A stretch of DNA of 51,064 nt, from the IMG/VR virus record IMGVR_UViG_2534681675_000014, one strand, 5' to 3'. Below the pieces are notes generated by a model. It saw only the letters and a program-made list of their open reading frames with translations, had not been told where the DNA came from and ran no database searches. How positions within the stretch are numbered: position 1 is the first letter of the stretch; the number at the start of each line of letters is the position of its first letter. Positions 1,532 to 50,514 of this stretch are shown here, one piece after another. This stretch comes from a virus. Taxonomy: Duplodnaviria > Heunggongvirae > Uroviricota > Caudoviricetes. Made by a program: the position numbers and the translations under genes.

Positions 1532-1741
1532 TTAATTTGAATACAATGCAATTCTCGAGGACTGAAGTTTCTCGCAATTAAAATTTATCAGTTTTACTTT
1601 CTGCTCTCTGGAAACGCCTGCTTCTTTTTTACCTGAGAGCATTTTTTCGCATTCTGATTTCGTTAGTTTAGATTTTGAATATCTTGTCCAGTTAGTAGGA
1701 GTGCCACCTTCCTTTTCAATAGTGGCGGTAATTTTATACAT
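1532..1741 (-). CDS. Small protein, YdaC-like (69 aa)
   Basis: ORF 1532..1813; ATG at 1741 preceded by GGAGGTG Shine-Dalgarno; this start overlaps the ralR stop by 8 nt. Confidence 0.5.
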   Translation of the reverse strand: MYKITATIEKEGGTPTNWTRYSKSKLTKSECEKMLSGKKEAGVSREQKVKLINFNCEKLQSSRIALYSN

Positions 1742-5838: not shown

Positions 5839-6009
5839 TTAAAGTTCATGTGCCATCTGGTCTTTTTCGGCACAAGCTTCACTGCAATATTTTCTCGGTT
5901 CGTCTTTTGATAAAATCCCGTGCATGAAGTGAAGCATTCTTTCAATAGCTTTGCTTTCTTCAACGTCTTTTTTGCAAAGGTGGTAAGCACATTTTATTTT
6001 CTTAGTCAT
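5839..6009 (-). CDS. ydaE: YdaE-like zinc-binding small protein (56 aa), below the ORF-track length cutoff
   Basis: Hand translation [56 protein letters not shown]; Cys/His-rich; ATG overlaps kilR stop (TGATG). Confidence 0.6.
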   Translation of the reverse strand: MTKKIKCAYHLCKKDVEESKAIERMLHFMHGILSKDEPRKYCSEACAEKDQMAHEL

Positions 6010-6242
6010 CACCATGACTCCGCCTTTACAGGTAAACCATCACGACCGAGGAAGACTTTAATCATGCGGTCAGTAATGCATGTTTTTGTGGTCAGGTTAC
6101 GAATATATAGTTTTCGCTTTTTAATATTGTTTGCCGAGGCAATATATGTCCGGCCTTCATGAAGAACATAATCGCCAGGAGTCACACACTGACGTGGTAT
6201 TTCATCAGTTCCGAAGTGATGTGCAATCATAATTATCTCCAT
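6009..6242 (-). CDS. kilR: KilR-like FtsZ inhibitor / host killing protein
   Basis: 77-aa ORF (73 aa from [14 protein letters not shown]...); recalled as Rac KilR; early-left operon position. Confidence 0.7.
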
Positions 6243-6671
6243 TTTTACAAATGAACTTTGTTGATGCGGTGCCTGGTGCCTCCAGGTGACTGCAACCAGT
6301 TAACAATTACAGTCGGCTTTCCCACCCAAACCAATAAGGACTAACATGACTTTTAACTGTGCCACGTGCGCTTAGCCGCATTCACCGCATCACAAAATTC
6401 ACTTTAAAAAGGGCGGACATCAGCCGAACTTCAAGAAAAAAACTGATGCCGCCAGGACTACACACAGCAATGTCGTTATTTACAACCGGAGGCGCACTCC
6501 CACCATTTAAATTTAACAGACAAGACCGACTCTTTATGGATATCGGAAATGCGCCTTCGTGTTGTGCCCGGTTTTATTTCACCACCTCCGGGCTTCGGTG
6601 GTCTCGGCTATACCCCTACAGCGAGAGCTTGTGTTAACATTTCAATACCCTTACAGTTGAGAGTTATTGAT

Positions 6672-7160
6672 ATGTTGGATGTATTTACTCCATTGTTGAA
6701 ACTTTTTGCTAACGAGCCACTCGAAAGACTTATGTATACGATTATCATTTTTGGTCTCACTCTCTGGCTGATACCGAAAGAGTTTACTGTCGCATTCAAT
6801 GCTTATACTGAAATACCTTGGCTCTTTCAGATTATCGTTTTTGCCTTTTCTTTCGTGGTCGCCATTTCCTTCTCAAGATTGCGAGCACATATTCAAAAGC
6901 ATTATTCATTACTACCAGAGCAACGAGTATTGCTTCGTTTATCTGAGAAAGAAATCGCTGTATTTAAAGATTTCCTTAAAACAGGAAATCTTATTATCAC
7001 TTCTCCTTGCCGTAACCCGGTTATGAAAAAATTAGAACGGAAGGGCATCATTCAACATCAGAGTGATAGCGCAAACTGTTCTTATTATCTCGTCACCGAA
7101 AAATACTCCCATTTTATGAAGTTATTCTGGAACAGCAGGAGTAGACGTTTTAATCGTTAG
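6672..7160 (+). CDS. sieB: Superinfection exclusion protein B (inner-membrane)
   Basis: 162-aa product from ATG 6672 (MLDVFTPLLKLFANEPLERL...), hydrophobic segments; only plus-strand gene in the early-left region. Confidence 0.8.
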   Translation: MLDVFTPLLKLFANEPLERLMYTIIIFGLTLWLIPKEFTVAFNAYTEIPWLFQIIVFAFSFVVAISFSRLRAHIQKHYSLLPEQRVLLRLSEKEIAVFKDFLKTGNLIITSPCRNPVMKKLERKGIIQHQSDSANCSYYLVTEKYSHFMKLFWNSRSRRFNR

Positions 7161-7312
7161 CTTACTGTGTGCTTCTCCAACCATCGGCGCGCACCAGTTT
7201 CGGTTTTAAATGTTTTGCTTTTGGTATACGTCATGGCAGTGAACGTTCCATCCTGGTTGGGGAACACGCCGCACACCAGGGATTCGTTGTTGCCGAGGTC
7301 GATTTTTTGCAT
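7157..7312 (-). CDS. ydaF: Small protein, YdaF-like (51 aa), below the ORF-track length cutoff
   Basis: Hand translation MQKIDLGNNESLVCGVFPNQDGTFTAMTYTKSKTFKTETGARRWLEKHTVS; stop overlaps sieB stop; length and position match Rac ydaF. Confidence 0.5.
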   Translation of the reverse strand: MQKIDLGNNESLVCGVFPNQDGTFTAMTYTKSKTFKTETGARRWLEKHTVS

Positions 7313-7457: not shown

Positions 7458-7742
7458 CTTATCTCTCCCCTTAACGCCGGGTGGCGGAACTGAAACCTGC
7501 TGCACTGCAAAATCTGAACCCTGCCGTCATGTTCATACGCCTCGGGCTGGCTACTTAACCCCTGACCACTGCCTGGTAACTCGAAGTATTGCCCTGCATT
7601 CTGTGGGGTGGGGTGAGGGAATGAATGAAGTTTAGAAAAATGAACTTTTCAGGTCAATGTTTTTTTTATCAAAACATTTTAGGCAGGCAGCTGTTAAGCC
7701 ATCAGCACGATGGCATACAGTTAATCAAATAGATGAGGTTGG

Positions 7743-8381
7743 TTAAATATCTTGTTGAATTTTAAAGCATACGCCCAATATGCAAGATAGATCATCCAGC
7801 ATAATTGAAGGGTAGCGAGGATTCGTGGGGACTAAAAGAATATCCGGCCCTTCTATCTCCAGTTTACGAATGACAGGTGTTGTGGTCCCTTTGGGTAAGG
7901 CAAGGACAATATTTCCTGGTTGTACGGTTCGATCGGGATCAACAAAAACTGTTGAACCATTTGGGATGGAAACTCCCCCACCAGATGTTGACATACTGTC
8001 ACTCTCTAGAACAACTGCAAAGGTATTGGCCGGGATTTCTCCGACAAGCTGCACACAAGAGGTTATTGAGGAATTTTTCATATAATCACTCCAGCTTGCT
8101 GCCTGCTGAAGTGATAGTAGCGGAACCGTTTTTATCGGCGGTAAAGATAGATCAAGCGAATCACCTGTATTTAACTCTCCTCCATTAAGAAGCCAATTTT
8201 CGTTTACTTTCAATATCTTTGCCAGTGAACTTATGTAACGCGAGGACGGCGCTCCTCCACCGTTCATCCATTGACTTACGGAGCCTTTTGATGCGCCAGT
8301 GGCATTGACAAGGTCTTTGCCTTTCAGGTTTAGCGCATGCATACGTTGGGTTATGCGTTCAGATATTGTTTGCTTGCTCAT
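7743..8381 (-). CDS. CI-type prophage repressor (N-terminal HTH, C-terminal LexA/S24-like autopeptidase)
   Basis: 212 aa; N-terminus SERITQRMHALNLKGKDLVNATGASKGSVSQW is HTH-like; C-terminal half S24-peptidase-like; divergent from cro-like gene; ATG directly abuts operator repeats. Confidence 0.75.
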   Translation of the reverse strand: MSKQTISERITQRMHALNLKGKDLVNATGASKGSVSQWMNGGGAPSSRYISSLAKILKVNENWLLNGGELNTGDSLDLSLPPIKTVPLLSLQQAASWSDYMKNSSITSCVQLVGEIPANTFAVVLESDSMSTSGGGVSIPNGSTVFVDPDRTVQPGNIVLALPKGTTTPVIRKLEIEGPDILLVPTNPRYPSIMLDDLSCILGVCFKIQQDI

Positions 8382-8472
8382 GTTTTGATTTTAAAACACA
8401 GATGGTTTTGTTTCTTGACTTTCTTTGGTTTTGATTATTAAACTTTTGGCGTTCAGTTTTATGGAGCGACTC
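8382..8472. promoter_or_regulatory. Divergent immunity promoter/operator region (OR-like)
   Basis: 91-bp gap between divergent repressor and cro-like genes; three direct GTTTTGWTT repeats at 8382, 8405, 8428 (23-bp period); TTGACT -35-like hexamer at 8415..8420. Confidence 0.5.
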
Positions 8473-8715
8473 ATGAAAAAATCAGAAGTATTAGGCTATT
8501 TTGGCGGAGTTGTTAAAACAGCCGCAGCTCTAGGAACGTCAAAAACCACAGTCAGCATGTGGGGGGAAGAGGTTCCGTGGAAATGGGCGTTGCTAATTCA
8601 GGCAGTCACTGCCGGGGCGCTCAAATATGAGTTACACATACCGACGGTTGTCATTCCTGGTTCTGATCATAATCCGCCTTCTAACCAAGGGGGGATTCAT
8701 GAAAATCAAGCATGA
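8473..8715 (+). CDS. Cro-like HTH regulator (YdaS-like)
   Basis: 80 aa from ATG 8473 (GGAG 6 nt upstream); HTH-like VKTAAALGTSKTTVSMW; divergent from repressor. Confidence 0.65.
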   Translation: MKKSEVLGYFGGVVKTAAALGTSKTTVSMWGEEVPWKWALLIQAVTAGALKYELHIPTVVIPGSDHNPPSNQGGIHENQA

Positions 8716-9124
8716 ACACATCCGCATGGCGATGAATGCCTGGGCGCGTCCTGATGGCGAAAAAGTTCCAGCAGCTGGAATAACCCAGGCTTATTTTGAG
8801 TTGGGTATGACGTTTCCTGAACTGTATGACGACAGCCATCCGGAAGCCCTGGCTCGCAATACCCAGAAAATTTTCCGCTGGGTAGAGAAAGACACCCCTG
8901 ATGCAGTTGAAAAAATTCAGGCGTTGTTACCAGCGATCGAAAAGGCAATGCCACCTTTGCTGGTGGCCAGAATGCGCAGCCACAGTTCAGCTTATTTTCG
9001 GGAGCTGGTGGAGACGCGGGAGCGATTGGTGAGAGACGCTGATGATTTTGTCGCAGTGGCAATCGCCGGTTTCAATCAGATGAACCGTGGTGGCCCGGCA
9101 GGAAATGCTGTGGCAGTACATTGA
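8699..9124 (+). CDS. YdaT-like protein (141 aa)
   Basis: ATG 8699 with AAGGGGGG Shine-Dalgarno; starts MKIKHEHI as recalled for Rac YdaT; overlaps cro-like gene by 17 nt. Confidence 0.6.
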   Translation: MKIKHEHIRMAMNAWARPDGEKVPAAGITQAYFELGMTFPELYDDSHPEALARNTQKIFRWVEKDTPDAVEKIQALLPAIEKAMPPLLVARMRSHSSAYFRELVETRERLVRDADDFVAVAIAGFNQMNRGGPAGNAVAVH

Positions 9125-14174: not shown

Positions 14175-14462
14175 TAACACTTCCTTAATTTTCCCTTAAC
14201 AATTTAGGGTGCTAAACTTTTTTGCGCAGTTTACACAAAAAAATAGTGCGTACGCAAAAACTATCTAACATGATGAGCTTTAACCGGGAAACTTGTATAT
14301 GTTGTGAGCATAAAGTTGGCTGAGAAATCTAAAACGGGTAGAATGACTGCGGGTGCTTGAGGCTATCTGCCTCGGGCATGAACACCAAAGGCAGATAGAG
14401 AAAAGCCCCAGTTAACATTACGCGTCCTGCAAGACGCTTAACATTAATCTGAGGCCAATTTC

Positions 14463-14675
14463 ATGCTTTGCACAAGTAGGTTAGCCTCTTACGTGCCGAA
14501 AGGCAAGGAGAAGCAGGCTATGAAGCAGCAAAAGGCGATGTTAATCGCCATGATCGTCATCTGTTTAACCGTCATAGTGACGGCACTGGTAACGAGGAAA
14601 GACCTCTGCGAGGTGCGAATCCGAACCGGCCAGACGGAGGTCGCTGTCTTCGTAGACTACGAATCTAGAGAGTAA
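14463..14675 (+). CDS. Mok-like in-frame leader reading frame of the hok locus (70 aa)
   Basis: In-frame N-terminal extension of the Hok-like toxin, as in mok/hok loci. Confidence 0.5.
   Translation: MLCTSRLASYVPKGKEKQAMKQQKAMLIAMIVICLTVIVTALVTRKDLCEVRIRTGQTEVAVFVDYESRE
14520..14675 (+). CDS. hok: Hok/Gef-family type I toxin (51 aa)
   Basis: MKQQKAMLIAMIVICLTVIVTALVTRKDLCEVRIRTGQTEVAVF recalled as Hok family; AAGGAG SD; stable hairpin downstream (14681..14707). Confidence 0.8.
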   Translation: MKQQKAMLIAMIVICLTVIVTALVTRKDLCEVRIRTGQTEVAVFVDYESRE

Positions 14676-36415: not shown

Positions 36416-39400
36416 ATGGCAGAGCAAACCTCGCGTCTCGCAATAATTATTGATAGCACTGGAGCGAAAAATAATGCTGACAATCTGACCTCCTCATTAG
36501 TCAAAATGACGCAGGCTGGGGAAACTGCTGCAAATAGCGCAGGGAAAGTGACTAAGGCAACAGAAGATGAGAAGAACGCGCTCGCAAAATTAAAAGCAGC
36601 TATTGATCCAGTTGGTGCCGCAATTGATACTGTCGGTCGACGCTATTCTGAATTAAAGAAATTTTTCGATAAAGGGCTTATTGATAAAGAAGAATATGAA
36701 TTTCTTGTCCGTAAACTTAATGAAACCACAGAGGAATTGAGCGGGGTTGCGCAAGCGCAGAGAGAAGCCGAGAAGGCCGGAAAACTTGCTGCCGCCCAGC
36801 AGGAAGCGCAGGCTCAGGCCTTTCAAAGAATGCTGGACAAGATCGACCCTCTGGCTGCGGCGCTAAGAAATCTTGAACAACAGCATGATGAACTTAATGC
36901 TGCGTTTGCATCCGGGAAAATAAATGGTTCTCAGTTTGAGAATTATAGCCGAAAAATACAGGAAACACGGCGAGAGCTTATCGGAGAGGCTCAGGCAGAG
37001 CGAGAAGCAGCAAAAGCGCATGATGAACAGGTTGTTGCTTTGCAACGTCTGATTGCTCAACTTGATCCTGTCGGAACTGCTTTTAATCGTCTGGTAGAAC
37101 AACAGAAACAGCTCAATGAAGCAAAAGCTAAGGGGATGCTTTCTCCTGAAATGTATGAGGAGCTTTCTGGAAAACTTCGTGCTATGCGGAGTGAGCTTGA
37201 GGTTACTCAATCACAATTAAGCAAAACCGGAATGTCGGCAAAACAAACGGCTTTTGCTATGCGCATGTTGCCTGCACAAATGACGGATATTGTTGTTGGG
37301 TTGTCCACTGGTCAGTCACCATTTATGGTGTTAATGCAGCAGGGCGGCCAGCTAAAAGATATGTTCGGTGGGATTGGCCCGGCGATCAAAGGTGTAGGTT
37401 CTTATGTGCTGGGATTAGTTAATCCTTTTACCCTGGCCGCAGCAGCCGTTGGGGTCTTAGGACTGGCTTACTATAAAGGCTCTCAGGAGCAGGACGAATT
37501 TAATAAATCTCTTATTCTTACCGGAAATCAGTTGGGGACAACCAGCGGGCAATTGGGCGATATAGCTCAACGTGCCGGGAATGCGGCTGATTCGACAACT
37601 GGTGCTGCGGCGGCAGTATTAAATCAGCTTGTGCGTTCGGGAAAGGTAGCGAGCAGTTCGCTGGAGCAAGTGACGACAGCGATAGTAAAAACGAGCGAAG
37701 TAACAGGAATATCAACCGAACAACTGGTTAATGACTTCAATGAAATTGCAAAGGATCCTGTCAGTGCCATATCAAAACTTAATGATCAGTACCATTTTCT
37801 GACACTTGCGACTTATAACCAGATTAAGGCGCTACAGGATGAAGGGAACCAGCAGGAGGCCGCCCGCATTGCGACAGAAGAATACTCATCCTCAATGATC
37901 CAGCGCACCAACCAGATTAAAGAAAATCTTGGTTATCTTGAGACTGCATGGAAAGCTGTCGCAGACTCCGCAAAATGGGCATGGGATTCCATGCTGGATA
38001 TTGGCCGTGAGACCTCCCTTGATCAAAAAATCTCAGATGTTCTCCGTCAAATTGATGAAATAGAAAAAAATACCCGACCCGGAGTTTTCGGGTTAGGTGG
38101 CATTGGAGATGGCGGAGCTCAAAATAAAAGGCTGGCACGATTAAAGCAGCAATTGGGCGTACTTCAAGCAGAAAAAATTGCTCAGGACGTACTAAATTCA
38201 TCAATAAACGATTACAACAAGCGACAACAGGAAGGAATTGAACTCAGACAGAGAGCAGATGCCTTTTCAAAACAATATCAGACCCGGGAGCAGCAGAGAG
38301 CTAGTGAACTTGCAAAACTGGAAAAGCTAAAGAATCAGTATTCAAAGGAAGAATATAATAATCTTATCGCTCAAATAAATGAGCGTTATAAAGATCCAAA
38401 GCAACCAAAGGCGAAAGGTTATTCTGATGATGCAGCCCAACGAATGATTGATCATCTGAATCAACAGAATGCGTTACTAAGTTCACAAGCTGAGTTGACC
38501 GTTAAATTAAGTTCCTCTGAACAGGAACTGGTTAAGTGGCGTCAGCGGATTGCCGACCTAGAGTCACGACCATCAACGAAATTAACCCAGGATCAGAAAT
38601 CGCTTCTCTTACACCGGGAAGAAATAACCGCGTTGATGGAGAAAAATGTTGCGATTGAAAAAAATAACAGGCTAATCAAGGAATCCGCCGAAATAACAGC
38701 ATGGCGTGATTCATTGCAGGCTTCGATTGATAATCGTCAGCAGGGGTATGATATTCAGATTGCTGGTTATGGGGTTGGCGATAAAAATCAGCAACGCCAG
38801 CAGGAATTACTGCGGATTGAACATGGATATAACAATCAGCGTTTGCAACTTGAACGTGACTATGCAGATAAATCCCGTGGAATGTCAGATCATGTTTTTC
38901 AAGAGAAAATGCAGGCTCTGAATGATGCTCTGGAACGGGAAAAAGAAATTGTCAGACAGAAAAACGAGCAGCTCGATATTCAGGCAGGAGACTGGGTTAG
39001 TGGTGCCTCCCAGGGATTCAATAACTGGCTGGATGACACTAAGGATATCAGTGAGCAGATAAAATCAACCACGACTCAGATGTTTGATGGGATGACCGAT
39101 GCGCTGGGTGATTTTGTCACGACAGGCAAGGCAAATTTTCGTTCTTTCGCTACTTCCGTGATTTCGGATCTTAGTCGAATAGCATTAAAGGCTTCAATTA
39201 CTGGGATTTTCGACAGCATTAGTAACAGTTCTTCTGGGGGGATTTTAGGAACTATCGGGAGTGCTATTAGTAAATTTATTCCGAATGCAAAGGGCGGTGT
39301 TTATGAGTCTCCGTCATTGAGCACGTATTCGAACGGTATTTATGATTCCCCGCAATTTTTTGCTTTTGCAAAAGGGGCTGGTGTTTTTGGTGAGGCTGGA

Positions 39401-49251: not shown

Positions 49252-49826
49252 TGGCATTCAGAATGAGTGAACAACCACGGACCATAAAAATTTATAATCT
49301 GCTGGCCGGAACTAATGAATTTATTGGTGAAGGTGATGCATATATTCCGCCTCATACAGGTCTGCCAGCAAACAGTACCGATATTGCACCGCCAGATATT
49401 CCGGCTGGCTTCGTGGCTGTTTTCAACAGTGATGAGTCATCGTGGCATCTCGTTGAAGATCATCGGGGTAAAACGGTTTATGACGTGGCTTCCGGCGACG
49501 CGTTATTTATTTCTGAACTCGGTCCGTTACCGGAAAATGTTACCTGGTTATCGCCGGAAGGGGAGTTTCAGAAGTGGAACGGCACAGCCTGGGTGAAGGA
49601 TACGGAAGCAGAAAAACTGTTCCGGATCCGGGAGGCGGAAGAAACAAAAAACAACCTGATGCAGGTAGCCAGTGAGCATATTGCGCCGCTTCAGGATGCT
49701 GCAGATCTGGAAATTGCAACGGAGGAAGAAATCTCGTTGCTGGAAGCATGGAAAAAGTATCGGGTATTGCTGAACCGTGTTGATACGTCAACTGCACAGG
49801 ATATTGAATGGCCAGCACTGCCGTAG
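49251..49826 (+). CDS. tfaR: Tail fibre assembly protein (Tfa)
   Basis: 191 aa; start overlaps stf stop (ATAATG); position. Confidence 0.8.
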
Positions 49827-49923: not shown

Positions 49924-50514
49924 TTATATGTCAGGTGTCTGAAGTTTTGCTTTGGCTCTTAAAATGGTTTGCCGCGAGGTTTTGAATTCCCGGGCAATGG
50001 CACTTATACTTACACCTGACTTAATTCGTTCGAATACCACCTGTTTCTGTTCTTCATTTAACACAGGTGGTCGACCAAAACGTTTCCCTGCGCCGCGGGC
50101 TCTTACTATCCCGGAATGAGTGCGTTCAAGTAAAAGGTCTCGTTCAAATTCAGCGACTGCTGAAATTACTTGCATCATCATTTTTCCTGTTGGACTGGTC
50201 AGGTCAATGCCACCCAATGCTAAGCAATGCACTCTGATACCTGTTTCGGTCAGTTGTTCCACTGTTTTCCTGATATCCATTGCATTACAACCAAGGCGAT
50301 CCAGTTTTGTCACAATCAATTGATCACCACATTTCAGGCGAGCAAGCAACCGGTTAAAACCAGGACGCTCACTGGTTGCTGCTGAGCCGCTAATGTGTTC
50401 TTCGATTATTTGCTGAGGTTTGATTTTAAAACCTGCACTTTCGATTTCCCGGCGTTGATTTTCGGTGGTCTGATCCAGCGTTGATATCCGACAGTAAGCA
50501 AAAATTCGAGACAT
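49924..50514 (-). CDS. pinR: Serine recombinase / DNA invertase Pin
   Basis: 196 aa; sequence recalled as PinR, Gin/Hin/Cin family. Confidence 0.9.

Follow-up and report, generated by a model that had tools for sequence, protein, structure and literature searches.

Described immunity switches and the genes of the locus

The closest characterized system to the locus described here is the heteroimmune switch of CP-933P (Sp12, E. coli O157:H7), whose immunity region carries PaaR2, YdaS, and YdaT (Jurenas et al. 2021, PMC8630535; Prolic-Kalinsek et al. 2023, PMC9986795). The 97-bp intergenic region of CP-933P contains four equally spaced inverted repeats, two of which are half-conserved; 5' RACE located the starts of PR and PRM, and the paaR2 mRNA is leaderless, as confirmed by N-terminal sequencing (PMC8630535). 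In phage lambda, the annotated OR3, OR2, and OR1 operators start at 37951, 37974, and 37998, respectively, which gives a 23/24-bp spacing. In the repressor family that includes lambda CI, 434, and P22 C2, structures solved with DNA show symmetric dimers bound to dyads.

The DNA analyzed here is a single stretch of 51,064 bp (the window), in which the following genes of an immunity module were annotated:

7743 to 8381, minus strand: repressor gene, 212 aa, with the Pfam domains HTH_3 and Peptidase_S24
8473 to 8715, plus strand: cro-like gene, 80 aa, Pfam P22_Cro (E = 1.1e-15), with a Shine-Dalgarno sequence, GGAG, at 8462 to 8465
8699 to 9124, next gene past cro: YdaT gene, near-identical to PDB 3c4r and matching the CP-933P YdaT structure 8bt1 (E = 4e-79)

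A divergent HTH/S24 repressor and a small Cro-type gene around a short control region are expected of a lambda-type switch. An earlier note on this DNA had proposed a divergent CI-type repressor and cro-like gene, and Pfam and PDB matches agreed with both identities. The best solved-structure match of the repressor was full-length lambda repressor (3bdn, E = 3.8e-10). Its N-terminal HTH domain was 434/P22 C2-like, based on PDB matches to N-terminal domains, and in this respect the protein is nearer to those two repressors than to lambda CI; its C-terminal S24 domain was of the lambda CI/LexA type and matched that of lambda CI. Ser129 and Lys173 of the repressor aligned with lambda Ser149 and Lys192, and the lambda cleavage site, Ala111-Gly112, aligned with Ala94-Ala95. 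Identity to the characterized repressors nearest by sequence (P22 C2 and others) was at most approximately 30%, and the N-terminal HTH domains of P22 C2 and 434 could be aligned with that of the window repressor (approximately 28% identity for P22 C2). The cro-like protein matched PDB 1rzs (Cro regulatory protein; E = 2.5e-8) and falls within the P22 Cro family, as in P22 and unlike in lambda, and the position held by CII in lambda is held in the window by the YdaT protein.

Divergent alleles of the module, with repressors 84 to 90% identical and DNA identity of approximately 82 to 83% for two loci, were aligned for comparison. Among them, seven of repressor codons 2 to 13 showed synonymous changes only, and codon 2 encoded S or T. 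Because codons 2 to 13 change mainly synonymously, the ATG at 8381 is read as the real start of the repressor, and no in-frame start codon was present upstream of it. A start at Met14 with a promoter within the gene was considered and rejected, given that nearly all changes in codons 2 to 13 were synonymous and that the N terminus of the repressor aligned with helix 1 of 434 and P22 C2; good -10 and -35 elements were also absent for such a start.

The 91-bp gap between the repressor and cro genes is predicted from its sequence to be OR (the right operator/promoter) of a lambda-type CI/Cro immunity switch, and a probability of roughly 0.75 is given to the operator assignment. The switch is of ordinary lambdoid design, which is well understood, and belongs to an E. 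coli prophage; the general understanding of lambdoid switches is unchanged by it. It represents a very common, uncharacterized immunity type, with predicted 16-bp operators and a predicted PRM geometry slightly tighter than that of lambda. The operator string had no match in the searchable literature.

The window shares with CP-933P the prophage backbone and flanks, and its YdaT was 84% identical to that of a CP-933P-type locus (L090) recovered for comparison. Assignment to the CP-933P type would call for homologs of PaaR2 and YdaS; BLASTP of the window repressor and Cro against PaaR2 and YdaS gave no alignment at E ≤ 100, and YdaT alone was shared. The module of the window would work like that of CP-933P but is not a member of its type. 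It differs further in that its repressor has an S24 domain, of the putatively self-cleaving kind, and in that the toxin-antitoxin genes found after the CP-933P repressor are absent.

Repeats and predicted operators between the repressor and cro genes

Three direct copies of GTTTTGWTT with a 23-bp period had been reported between the repressor and cro genes, and all were found again when every coordinate was reread in the sequence: GTTTTGATT at 8382 to 8390, GTTTTGTTT at 8405 to 8413, and GTTTTGATT again at 8428 to 8436, with start-to-start distances of exactly 23 and 23 bp. The first copy was also confirmed to lie beside the repressor start codon, which reads CAT on the plus strand at 8379 to 8381, with the repeat following from 8382. 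On both strands of the whole window, GTTTTGWTT matched three times, each time within this gap. Three matches anywhere in the window were reached in 26 of 100 shuffles, so that the count itself is not unusual; it is the clustering and phasing of the copies, rather than their number, that are unusual.

Since the gap is T-rich (48% T), the repeats were tested against local composition, with dinucleotide-preserving shuffles of the 91-bp gap (n = 20,000) as the null. Equally spaced 9-mer triples with pairwise matches of at least 8/9 arose in 11 of the 20,000 shuffles, and a single shuffle produced at least two GTTT-N8-AAAC dyads. A fourth, weaker copy of the repeat (GTTCAGTTT, 7/9 match) was found at 8451 in the same 23-bp phase, and a match as good as this one at a single fixed position has a P value of approximately 0.036. 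A 32-nt stretch (repeat D1) was also found to be repeated at 72% identity with a 46-bp spacing, extending into the coding sequence.

The predicted operator units and promoter elements of the gap were as follows:

8382 to 8397: unit A, predicted OR3-equivalent, GTTTTGATTTTAAAAC, adjoining the repressor ATG and lying over the PRM -10
8405 to 8420: unit B, predicted OR2-equivalent, GTTTTGTTTCTTGACT, with a consensus left half and a right half that is the PR -35
8428 to 8443: unit C, predicted OR1-equivalent, GTTTTGATTATTAAAC, within the PR spacer and overlapping the PR -10
8451 to 8466: unit D, tentative fourth phased unit, GTTCAGTTTTATGGAG, spanning the PR start and the Shine-Dalgarno sequence of cro
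8415 to 8444, plus strand: PR-like promoter of cro from the consensus scan, with -35 TTGACT (8415 to 8420), an 18-bp spacer, and -10 TAAACT (8439 to 8444)
8388 to 8393, minus strand: candidate PRM -10, TAAAAT, occupying -12 to -7 relative to the first base of the repressor start codon (8381)

The four units, which start at 8382, 8405, 8428, and 8451 and are phased at 23 bp, each carry the half-site GTTTTG(A/T)T. Although the repeats are real, their earlier description as operator-like direct repeats was revised, as they are better read as halves of 16-bp pseudo-palindromes, with AAAC occurring exactly 12 nt downstream of the repeat start in units A and C. Since B and D retain the GTTTTG-type half alone, each direct repeat most likely represents the better-conserved half of a putative dyad operator (GTTTT-N6-AAAAC), with alternate units degenerate. 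Unit A has exact GTTTT-N6-AAAAC arms (6/8 symmetric pairs) and was unchanged across seven divergent alleles except for a T/C change at 8386. Unit C, also a dyad, was unchanged across alleles, while the neighboring positions 8427 and 8448 to 8451 varied. Unit B is half-conserved (1/8 symmetric pairs) and was likewise unchanged, and unit D, exactly 23 bp past C, has 3/8 symmetric pairs, with GTTC(A/G)GTTTT kept in all alleles. Because dyad symmetry is absent from B and D, these units may be bound only weakly or may not serve as operators. The GTTCA half-site of unit D was also observed in OL1, described below.

Readings in which the repeats are not dyad halves were weighed against the same data. 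The repressor or Cro might read the GTTTTG direct repeats as such, in a head-to-tail array of four units like those of P2-type C repressors, which would fit the conserved half being kept on one strand and in one phase by all four units, as well as the lack of a convincing second half in B and D. This is improbable, as the complementary AAAAC or AAAC stands at a fixed distance in A, C, and OL2, where a pair of such dyads was seldom produced by shuffling (1/20,000), OL2 is oriented opposite to A, and the PDB matches place the repressor in the lambda CI/434/P22 C2 family. P2 C, for its part, is a small protein unrelated to the window repressor. An alternative dyad register, AAAAC-N7-GTTTT at 8393 to 8409 (centered at -20 from PRM, like lambda OR3), was rejected as a single occurrence, with no counterpart between B and C, past C, or at OL. 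A sequence resembling site A at 50417 to 50432 falls within an invertase gene and probably arose by chance, and a by-eye check of OR and OL for IHF-like sites (WATCAANNNNTTR) gave no full match.

The repeats might also be TTGATT half-sites for YdaT, the conserved CII analogue encoded directly downstream. Units A and C contain exact TTGATT sequences, YdaT of CP-933P binds TTGATT-N6-AATCAA (PMC9986795), and the YdaT proteins of the window and L090 are as similar as noted above (84% identity). Nevertheless, the AATCAA partner is absent from OR, where the best 18-bp match has three mismatches, and lone incomplete repeats are bound only weakly by YdaT (Kd, approximately 53 uM; PMC9986795). YdaT is, moreover, common to heteroimmune modules, whereas the repeats are cassette-specific and absent from CP-933P-type OR, and a much better YdaT-type site lies at the cro/ydaT junction (8692 to 8709), which is the expected place. 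On these grounds, YdaT binding to the OR repeats was rejected as very improbable.

Read as dyad operators, the units resemble those of CP-933P in being equally spaced with alternate members half-conserved, in having half-sites that start with GTTT, and in a PR-proximal site whose right half also serves as the -10. They differ from them in period (23 bp in the window versus approximately 19.5 bp), in site length (16 versus 18 bp), and in half-site (GTTTTGAT versus GTTTAGTAA). Compared to lambda, the predicted operators are 16 rather than 17 bp long, with the half-site GTTTTGAT in place of TATCACCGC; their spacing is 23/23 bp versus 23/24 bp, the divergent repressor/cro gap is 91 bp versus 100 bp, and the window has a possible fourth unit over the PR start. 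With P22 C2 and 434 they share the character of AT-rich, dyad-symmetric sites in which the outer bases are conserved and the center varies. The sites of 434 are 14 bp long (ACAA-N6-TTGT) and those of P22 are 18 bp long, and the predicted window sites differ from these in length and sequence.

The predicted leftward operator region and exchange of the immunity cassette

The earlier note had pointed to GTTTT/AAAAC inverted motifs to the left of the repressor as a candidate OL-side site. Such a motif was located at 7659 to 7675, with the same dyad as unit A, and it overlaps a PL-like promoter. The features predicted on this side were as follows:

7659 to 7675: OL2, GTTTTTTTTATCAAAAC (reverse complement, GTTTTGATAAAAAAAAC), directly upstream of the PL -35
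7630 to 7645: OL1, GTTTAGAAAAATGAAC, overlapping the PL -10 and placed on PL as unit C is on PR
7629 to 7657, minus strand: PL-like promoter from the consensus promoter scan, with -35 TTGACC (7657 to 7652), a 17-bp spacer, and -10 TAAACT (7634 to 7629)

OL2 is related to unit A as an inverted repeat (I2, 82%). In 70 of 74 related loci, OL2 is a 16-bp perfect-armed dyad with a run of seven T residues, and the window has eight, with one extra central T. OL1 is related to unit C as a direct repeat (D2, 75%) and is only partly a dyad (4/8 symmetric pairs); it was conserved among alleles, whereas 7646 to 7651 varied. The two OL sites found are 29 bp apart (29.5 bp in the window), compared to 23 bp between units in OR. 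The motif common to OR and OL (repeats I2, I4, and D2) is found at OL, approximately 700 bp from OR, in both orientations, and no other motif shared by OL and OR was found in 7500 to 8520. A lambda-type switch is expected to carry its operator motif at another site as well, over the leftward early promoter, and a second operator set over PL is a feature of lambda also. The PL -10, TAAACT, is the same in CP-933P.

Among the divergent alleles, the variable columns of OR fell between the units (8400 to 8403, 8427, and 8448 to 8451), apart from the single T/C at 8386, and those of OL fell between OL1 and the PL -35. The pattern of conservation across OR and OL was footprint-like but depends on a small number of variable columns, since the alleles were highly similar overall (mean column identity, 92%).

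Many E. coli matches to the region, in thousands of genomes, covered the flanks alone (query positions 1 to 116 and 1195 to 1301, corresponding to window positions 7500 to 7615 and 8694 to 8800), indicating that the sequence between them behaves as an exchangeable cassette:

7616 to 8693, no strand assigned: exchangeable immunity cassette, comprising PL/OL, the repressor gene, OR, and cro between shared flanks

Operators, repressor, and cro moving together as one exchangeable cassette are likewise expected of a lambda-type switch. Three heteroimmune loci (L087, L088, and L090) had flanks in common with the window and a different cassette. Each heteroimmune cassette on this backbone had an OL/OR-shared dyad of its own, such as GGTAAC-N4-GTTACC in L088, at positions equivalent to those of the window.

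These observations bear on whether the T-rich periodic repeats could have arisen from the architecture of the promoters or through an ancient 46-bp duplication, without being recognized specifically by any protein, in which case the operators would lie elsewhere. The T content of the gap, the D1 repeat with its 46-bp spacing and its extension into coding sequence, and the fact that C and OL1 each end on the right in a -10 hexamer, which would be conserved for reasons of its own, are compatible with such an origin. It is nonetheless highly improbable, given that the pattern seldom arose in shuffles of local composition, that the motif is present again, in both orientations, at OL some 700 bp away and is the only OL/OR-shared motif found in 7500 to 8520, and that heteroimmune cassettes have dyads of their own at the same positions.

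Of 5,426 complete E. coli genomes, 1,058 (approximately 19%) carried the immunity cassette, O157:H7 and O145 strains among them; it was also found in phages 204576, vB_EcoS-640R1 (an induced phage), and vB_EcoS-813R8. A scan of IMG/VR recovered 80 near-identical loci, which were informative for polymorphism only, and a protein word-index search for the repressor returned only alleles of the same specificity (73 to 99% identical). No relatives of the repressor were confirmed in a scan of genome contigs. For these very common prophages, the operator/promoter map indicates which sites could be probed in superinfection immunity, prophage induction, and engineering.

Predicted promoter geometry, repressor transcript, and operation of the switch

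The TTGACT hexamer at 8415 to 8420, which the earlier note had recorded as -35-like between the second and third repeats, was paired by the promoter scan with TAAACT at 8439 to 8444 over 18 bp. Owing to this pairing, the hexamer is assigned to the predicted PR, as its -35, and not to the maintenance promoter. The PR start was predicted near 8451. TTGACT is also the PR -35 of lambda, and the PR of L090 (TTGACT-18-TAAACT) is identical to that of the window in both hexamers and in spacer length. With unit B overlapping the PR -35, unit C overlapping the PR -10, and the PRM -10 inside unit A, at least three related operator-like sites approximately two helical turns apart extend across the divergent promoters, as expected of a lambda-type switch.

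PRM was not called by the consensus promoter scan. On the minus strand ahead of the repressor, the sequence reads TAAAAT-CAAAAC-ATG; the hexamer, which is near-consensus, was unchanged in all alleles, whereas the candidate PRM -35, AAGAAA (8416 to 8411), is poor. No Shine-Dalgarno sequence was found in the sequence ahead of the repressor ATG, in contrast to the GGAG that precedes cro. Because TAAAAT sits at -12 to -7 and a Shine-Dalgarno sequence is lacking, PRM transcription probably begins with the first base of the start codon (8381), and a start at this position would make the repressor mRNA leaderless, as the earlier note had proposed and as in lambda cI and CP-933P paaR2. The layout of start codon, 6 nt, and -10 hexamer, which predicts a leaderless repressor mRNA, is common to lambda and the window.

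Relative to PR, the unit centers lie at -15.5 (C), -38.5 (B), and -61.5 (A), which is nearly the same as in lambda (OR1, -17; OR2, -41; OR3, -64). Relative to PRM, they lie at -8.5 (A), -31.5 (B), and -54.5 (C), approximately 10.5 bp nearer to the start than in lambda (OR3, -19; OR2, -42; OR1, -66); in CP-933P, the promoter-proximal site is centered at approximately -20 from PRM, compared to -8.5 in the window. Consequently, unlike in lambda, the OR3-equivalent lies over the PRM -10 and start, and, with the array about one helical turn nearer to PRM, the OR2-equivalent (B) overlaps the PRM -35.

From the gene families and the arrangement of sites, we infer how the switch would operate. Dimers of the HTH/S24 repressor would fill C and then, cooperatively through their lambda CI-like C-terminal domains, B, which would turn PR off; dimers at OL1 and OL2 would turn PL off. 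At higher repressor levels, A would become occupied, and the repressor's own PRM would be shut off. The P22-type Cro would act on the same sites with the opposite preference and so silence PRM first.

Because B overlaps a PRM -35 that is itself poor, activation of PRM from the OR2-equivalent, as in lambda, is not assured. The tighter PRM geometry and the four same-strand units phased at 23 bp make it conceivable, although unlikely, that PRM is not activated through lambda-style contacts, the switch relying instead on, for example, relief of the competition exerted by the back-to-back PR, or that the repressor assembles head to tail on half-sites as a phased array.

The predicted repressor transcript provides the Rac/CP-933P-type backbone with a second case of a putatively leaderless repressor mRNA. 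The PRM -10 of L090 (GATAAT) likewise occupies -12 to -7 relative to the ATG, in the same layout of CAT, 6 nt, and hexamer as in the window.

Predicted operators and repeats around the repressor gene

At the center of OL2 (7659-7675), the predicted operator dyad to the left of the repressor gene, the window had a run of eight T residues (T8); among 74 related loci, 70 had T7 here and 3 had T6. The window dyad therefore measured 17 bp rather than 16 bp. This T8 run could be a homopolymer sequencing error or a genuine spacing mutation that weakens the predicted OL2. Between OL2 and the repressor stop codon, the following feature was found:

7699-7715, minus strand: palindrome, GCCATC-N5-GATGGC

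The arms of this palindrome were kept among alleles, with a variable center (AGCAC, AATAT, or ACTGT). As RNA, it formed a modest hairpin (minimum free energy, -13.2 kcal/mol over a 70-nt stretch; z, -1.9) that lacked a U-tract; a heteroimmune locus on the same backbone (L088) carried a canonical terminator at the equivalent position. The palindrome may act as a weak terminator for repressor transcription or as a dyad to which a protein binds.

At OR, the gap between the repressor and cro-like genes, a 32-nt direct repeat (8366-8397 versus 8412-8443; 72% identity) was spaced at 46 bp, or two units, and extended beyond operator unit A into the repressor gene, over its first codons. This repeat may be what is left of an old duplication of two units. 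Similar 24-nt repeats spaced at 39 bp were present in the CP-933P-type OR (L090, positions 7236 and 7275). Far from OR, the sequence GGTTTGATTTTAAAAC (window 50417-50432) agreed with unit A in 15 of its 16 bases, including 14 consecutive identical ones. It lay within a gene for a serine invertase of the Pin/Hin type (49924-50514, minus strand), adjoining tail-fiber genes, and the likeness is probably a chance match.

Candidate YdaT site at the cro/ydaT junction

8692-8709: GGGATTCATGAAAATCAA, candidate YdaT site overlapping the ydaT start codon

This site was the counterpart of OM, the footprinted YdaT operator of the E. coli O157:H7 prophage CP-933P (TTGATT-N6-AATCAA; PMC9986795), which reads TTGATTCATGAAAATCAA in L090. 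The left half of the window site was altered to GGGATT because the boundary of the exchangeable immunity cassette (~8694) passes through it.

Repressor protein, O157:H7 copies, and prophage backbone

The self-cleavage bond of lambda CI (Ala111-Gly112) aligned with Ala94-Ala95 of the repressor (window 8100-8105), around which QQAASW was kept in all intact full-length alleles, and the Ser/Lys catalytic residues were conserved. RecA-dependent inducibility may differ from that of lambda. Cassette copies in O157:H7 were 98.6% identical to that of the window, and of their repressor only the C-terminal 112 aa were annotated as a gene, as in the following locus:

L136 (E. coli O157:H7 ATCC 43888), 6001-6339: C-terminal 112 aa of the repressor

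These copies may carry a disrupted repressor gene, with the predicted operators still present.

Rfam matches above the gathering score (RalA antitoxin sRNA, sok antitoxin RNA, and IS009 RNA; window 1557-1735, 14351-14525, and 49594-49792) and a DUF1391 (YdfA-like) gene (7157-7312) together indicate a Rac/Qin-like lambdoid prophage backbone.
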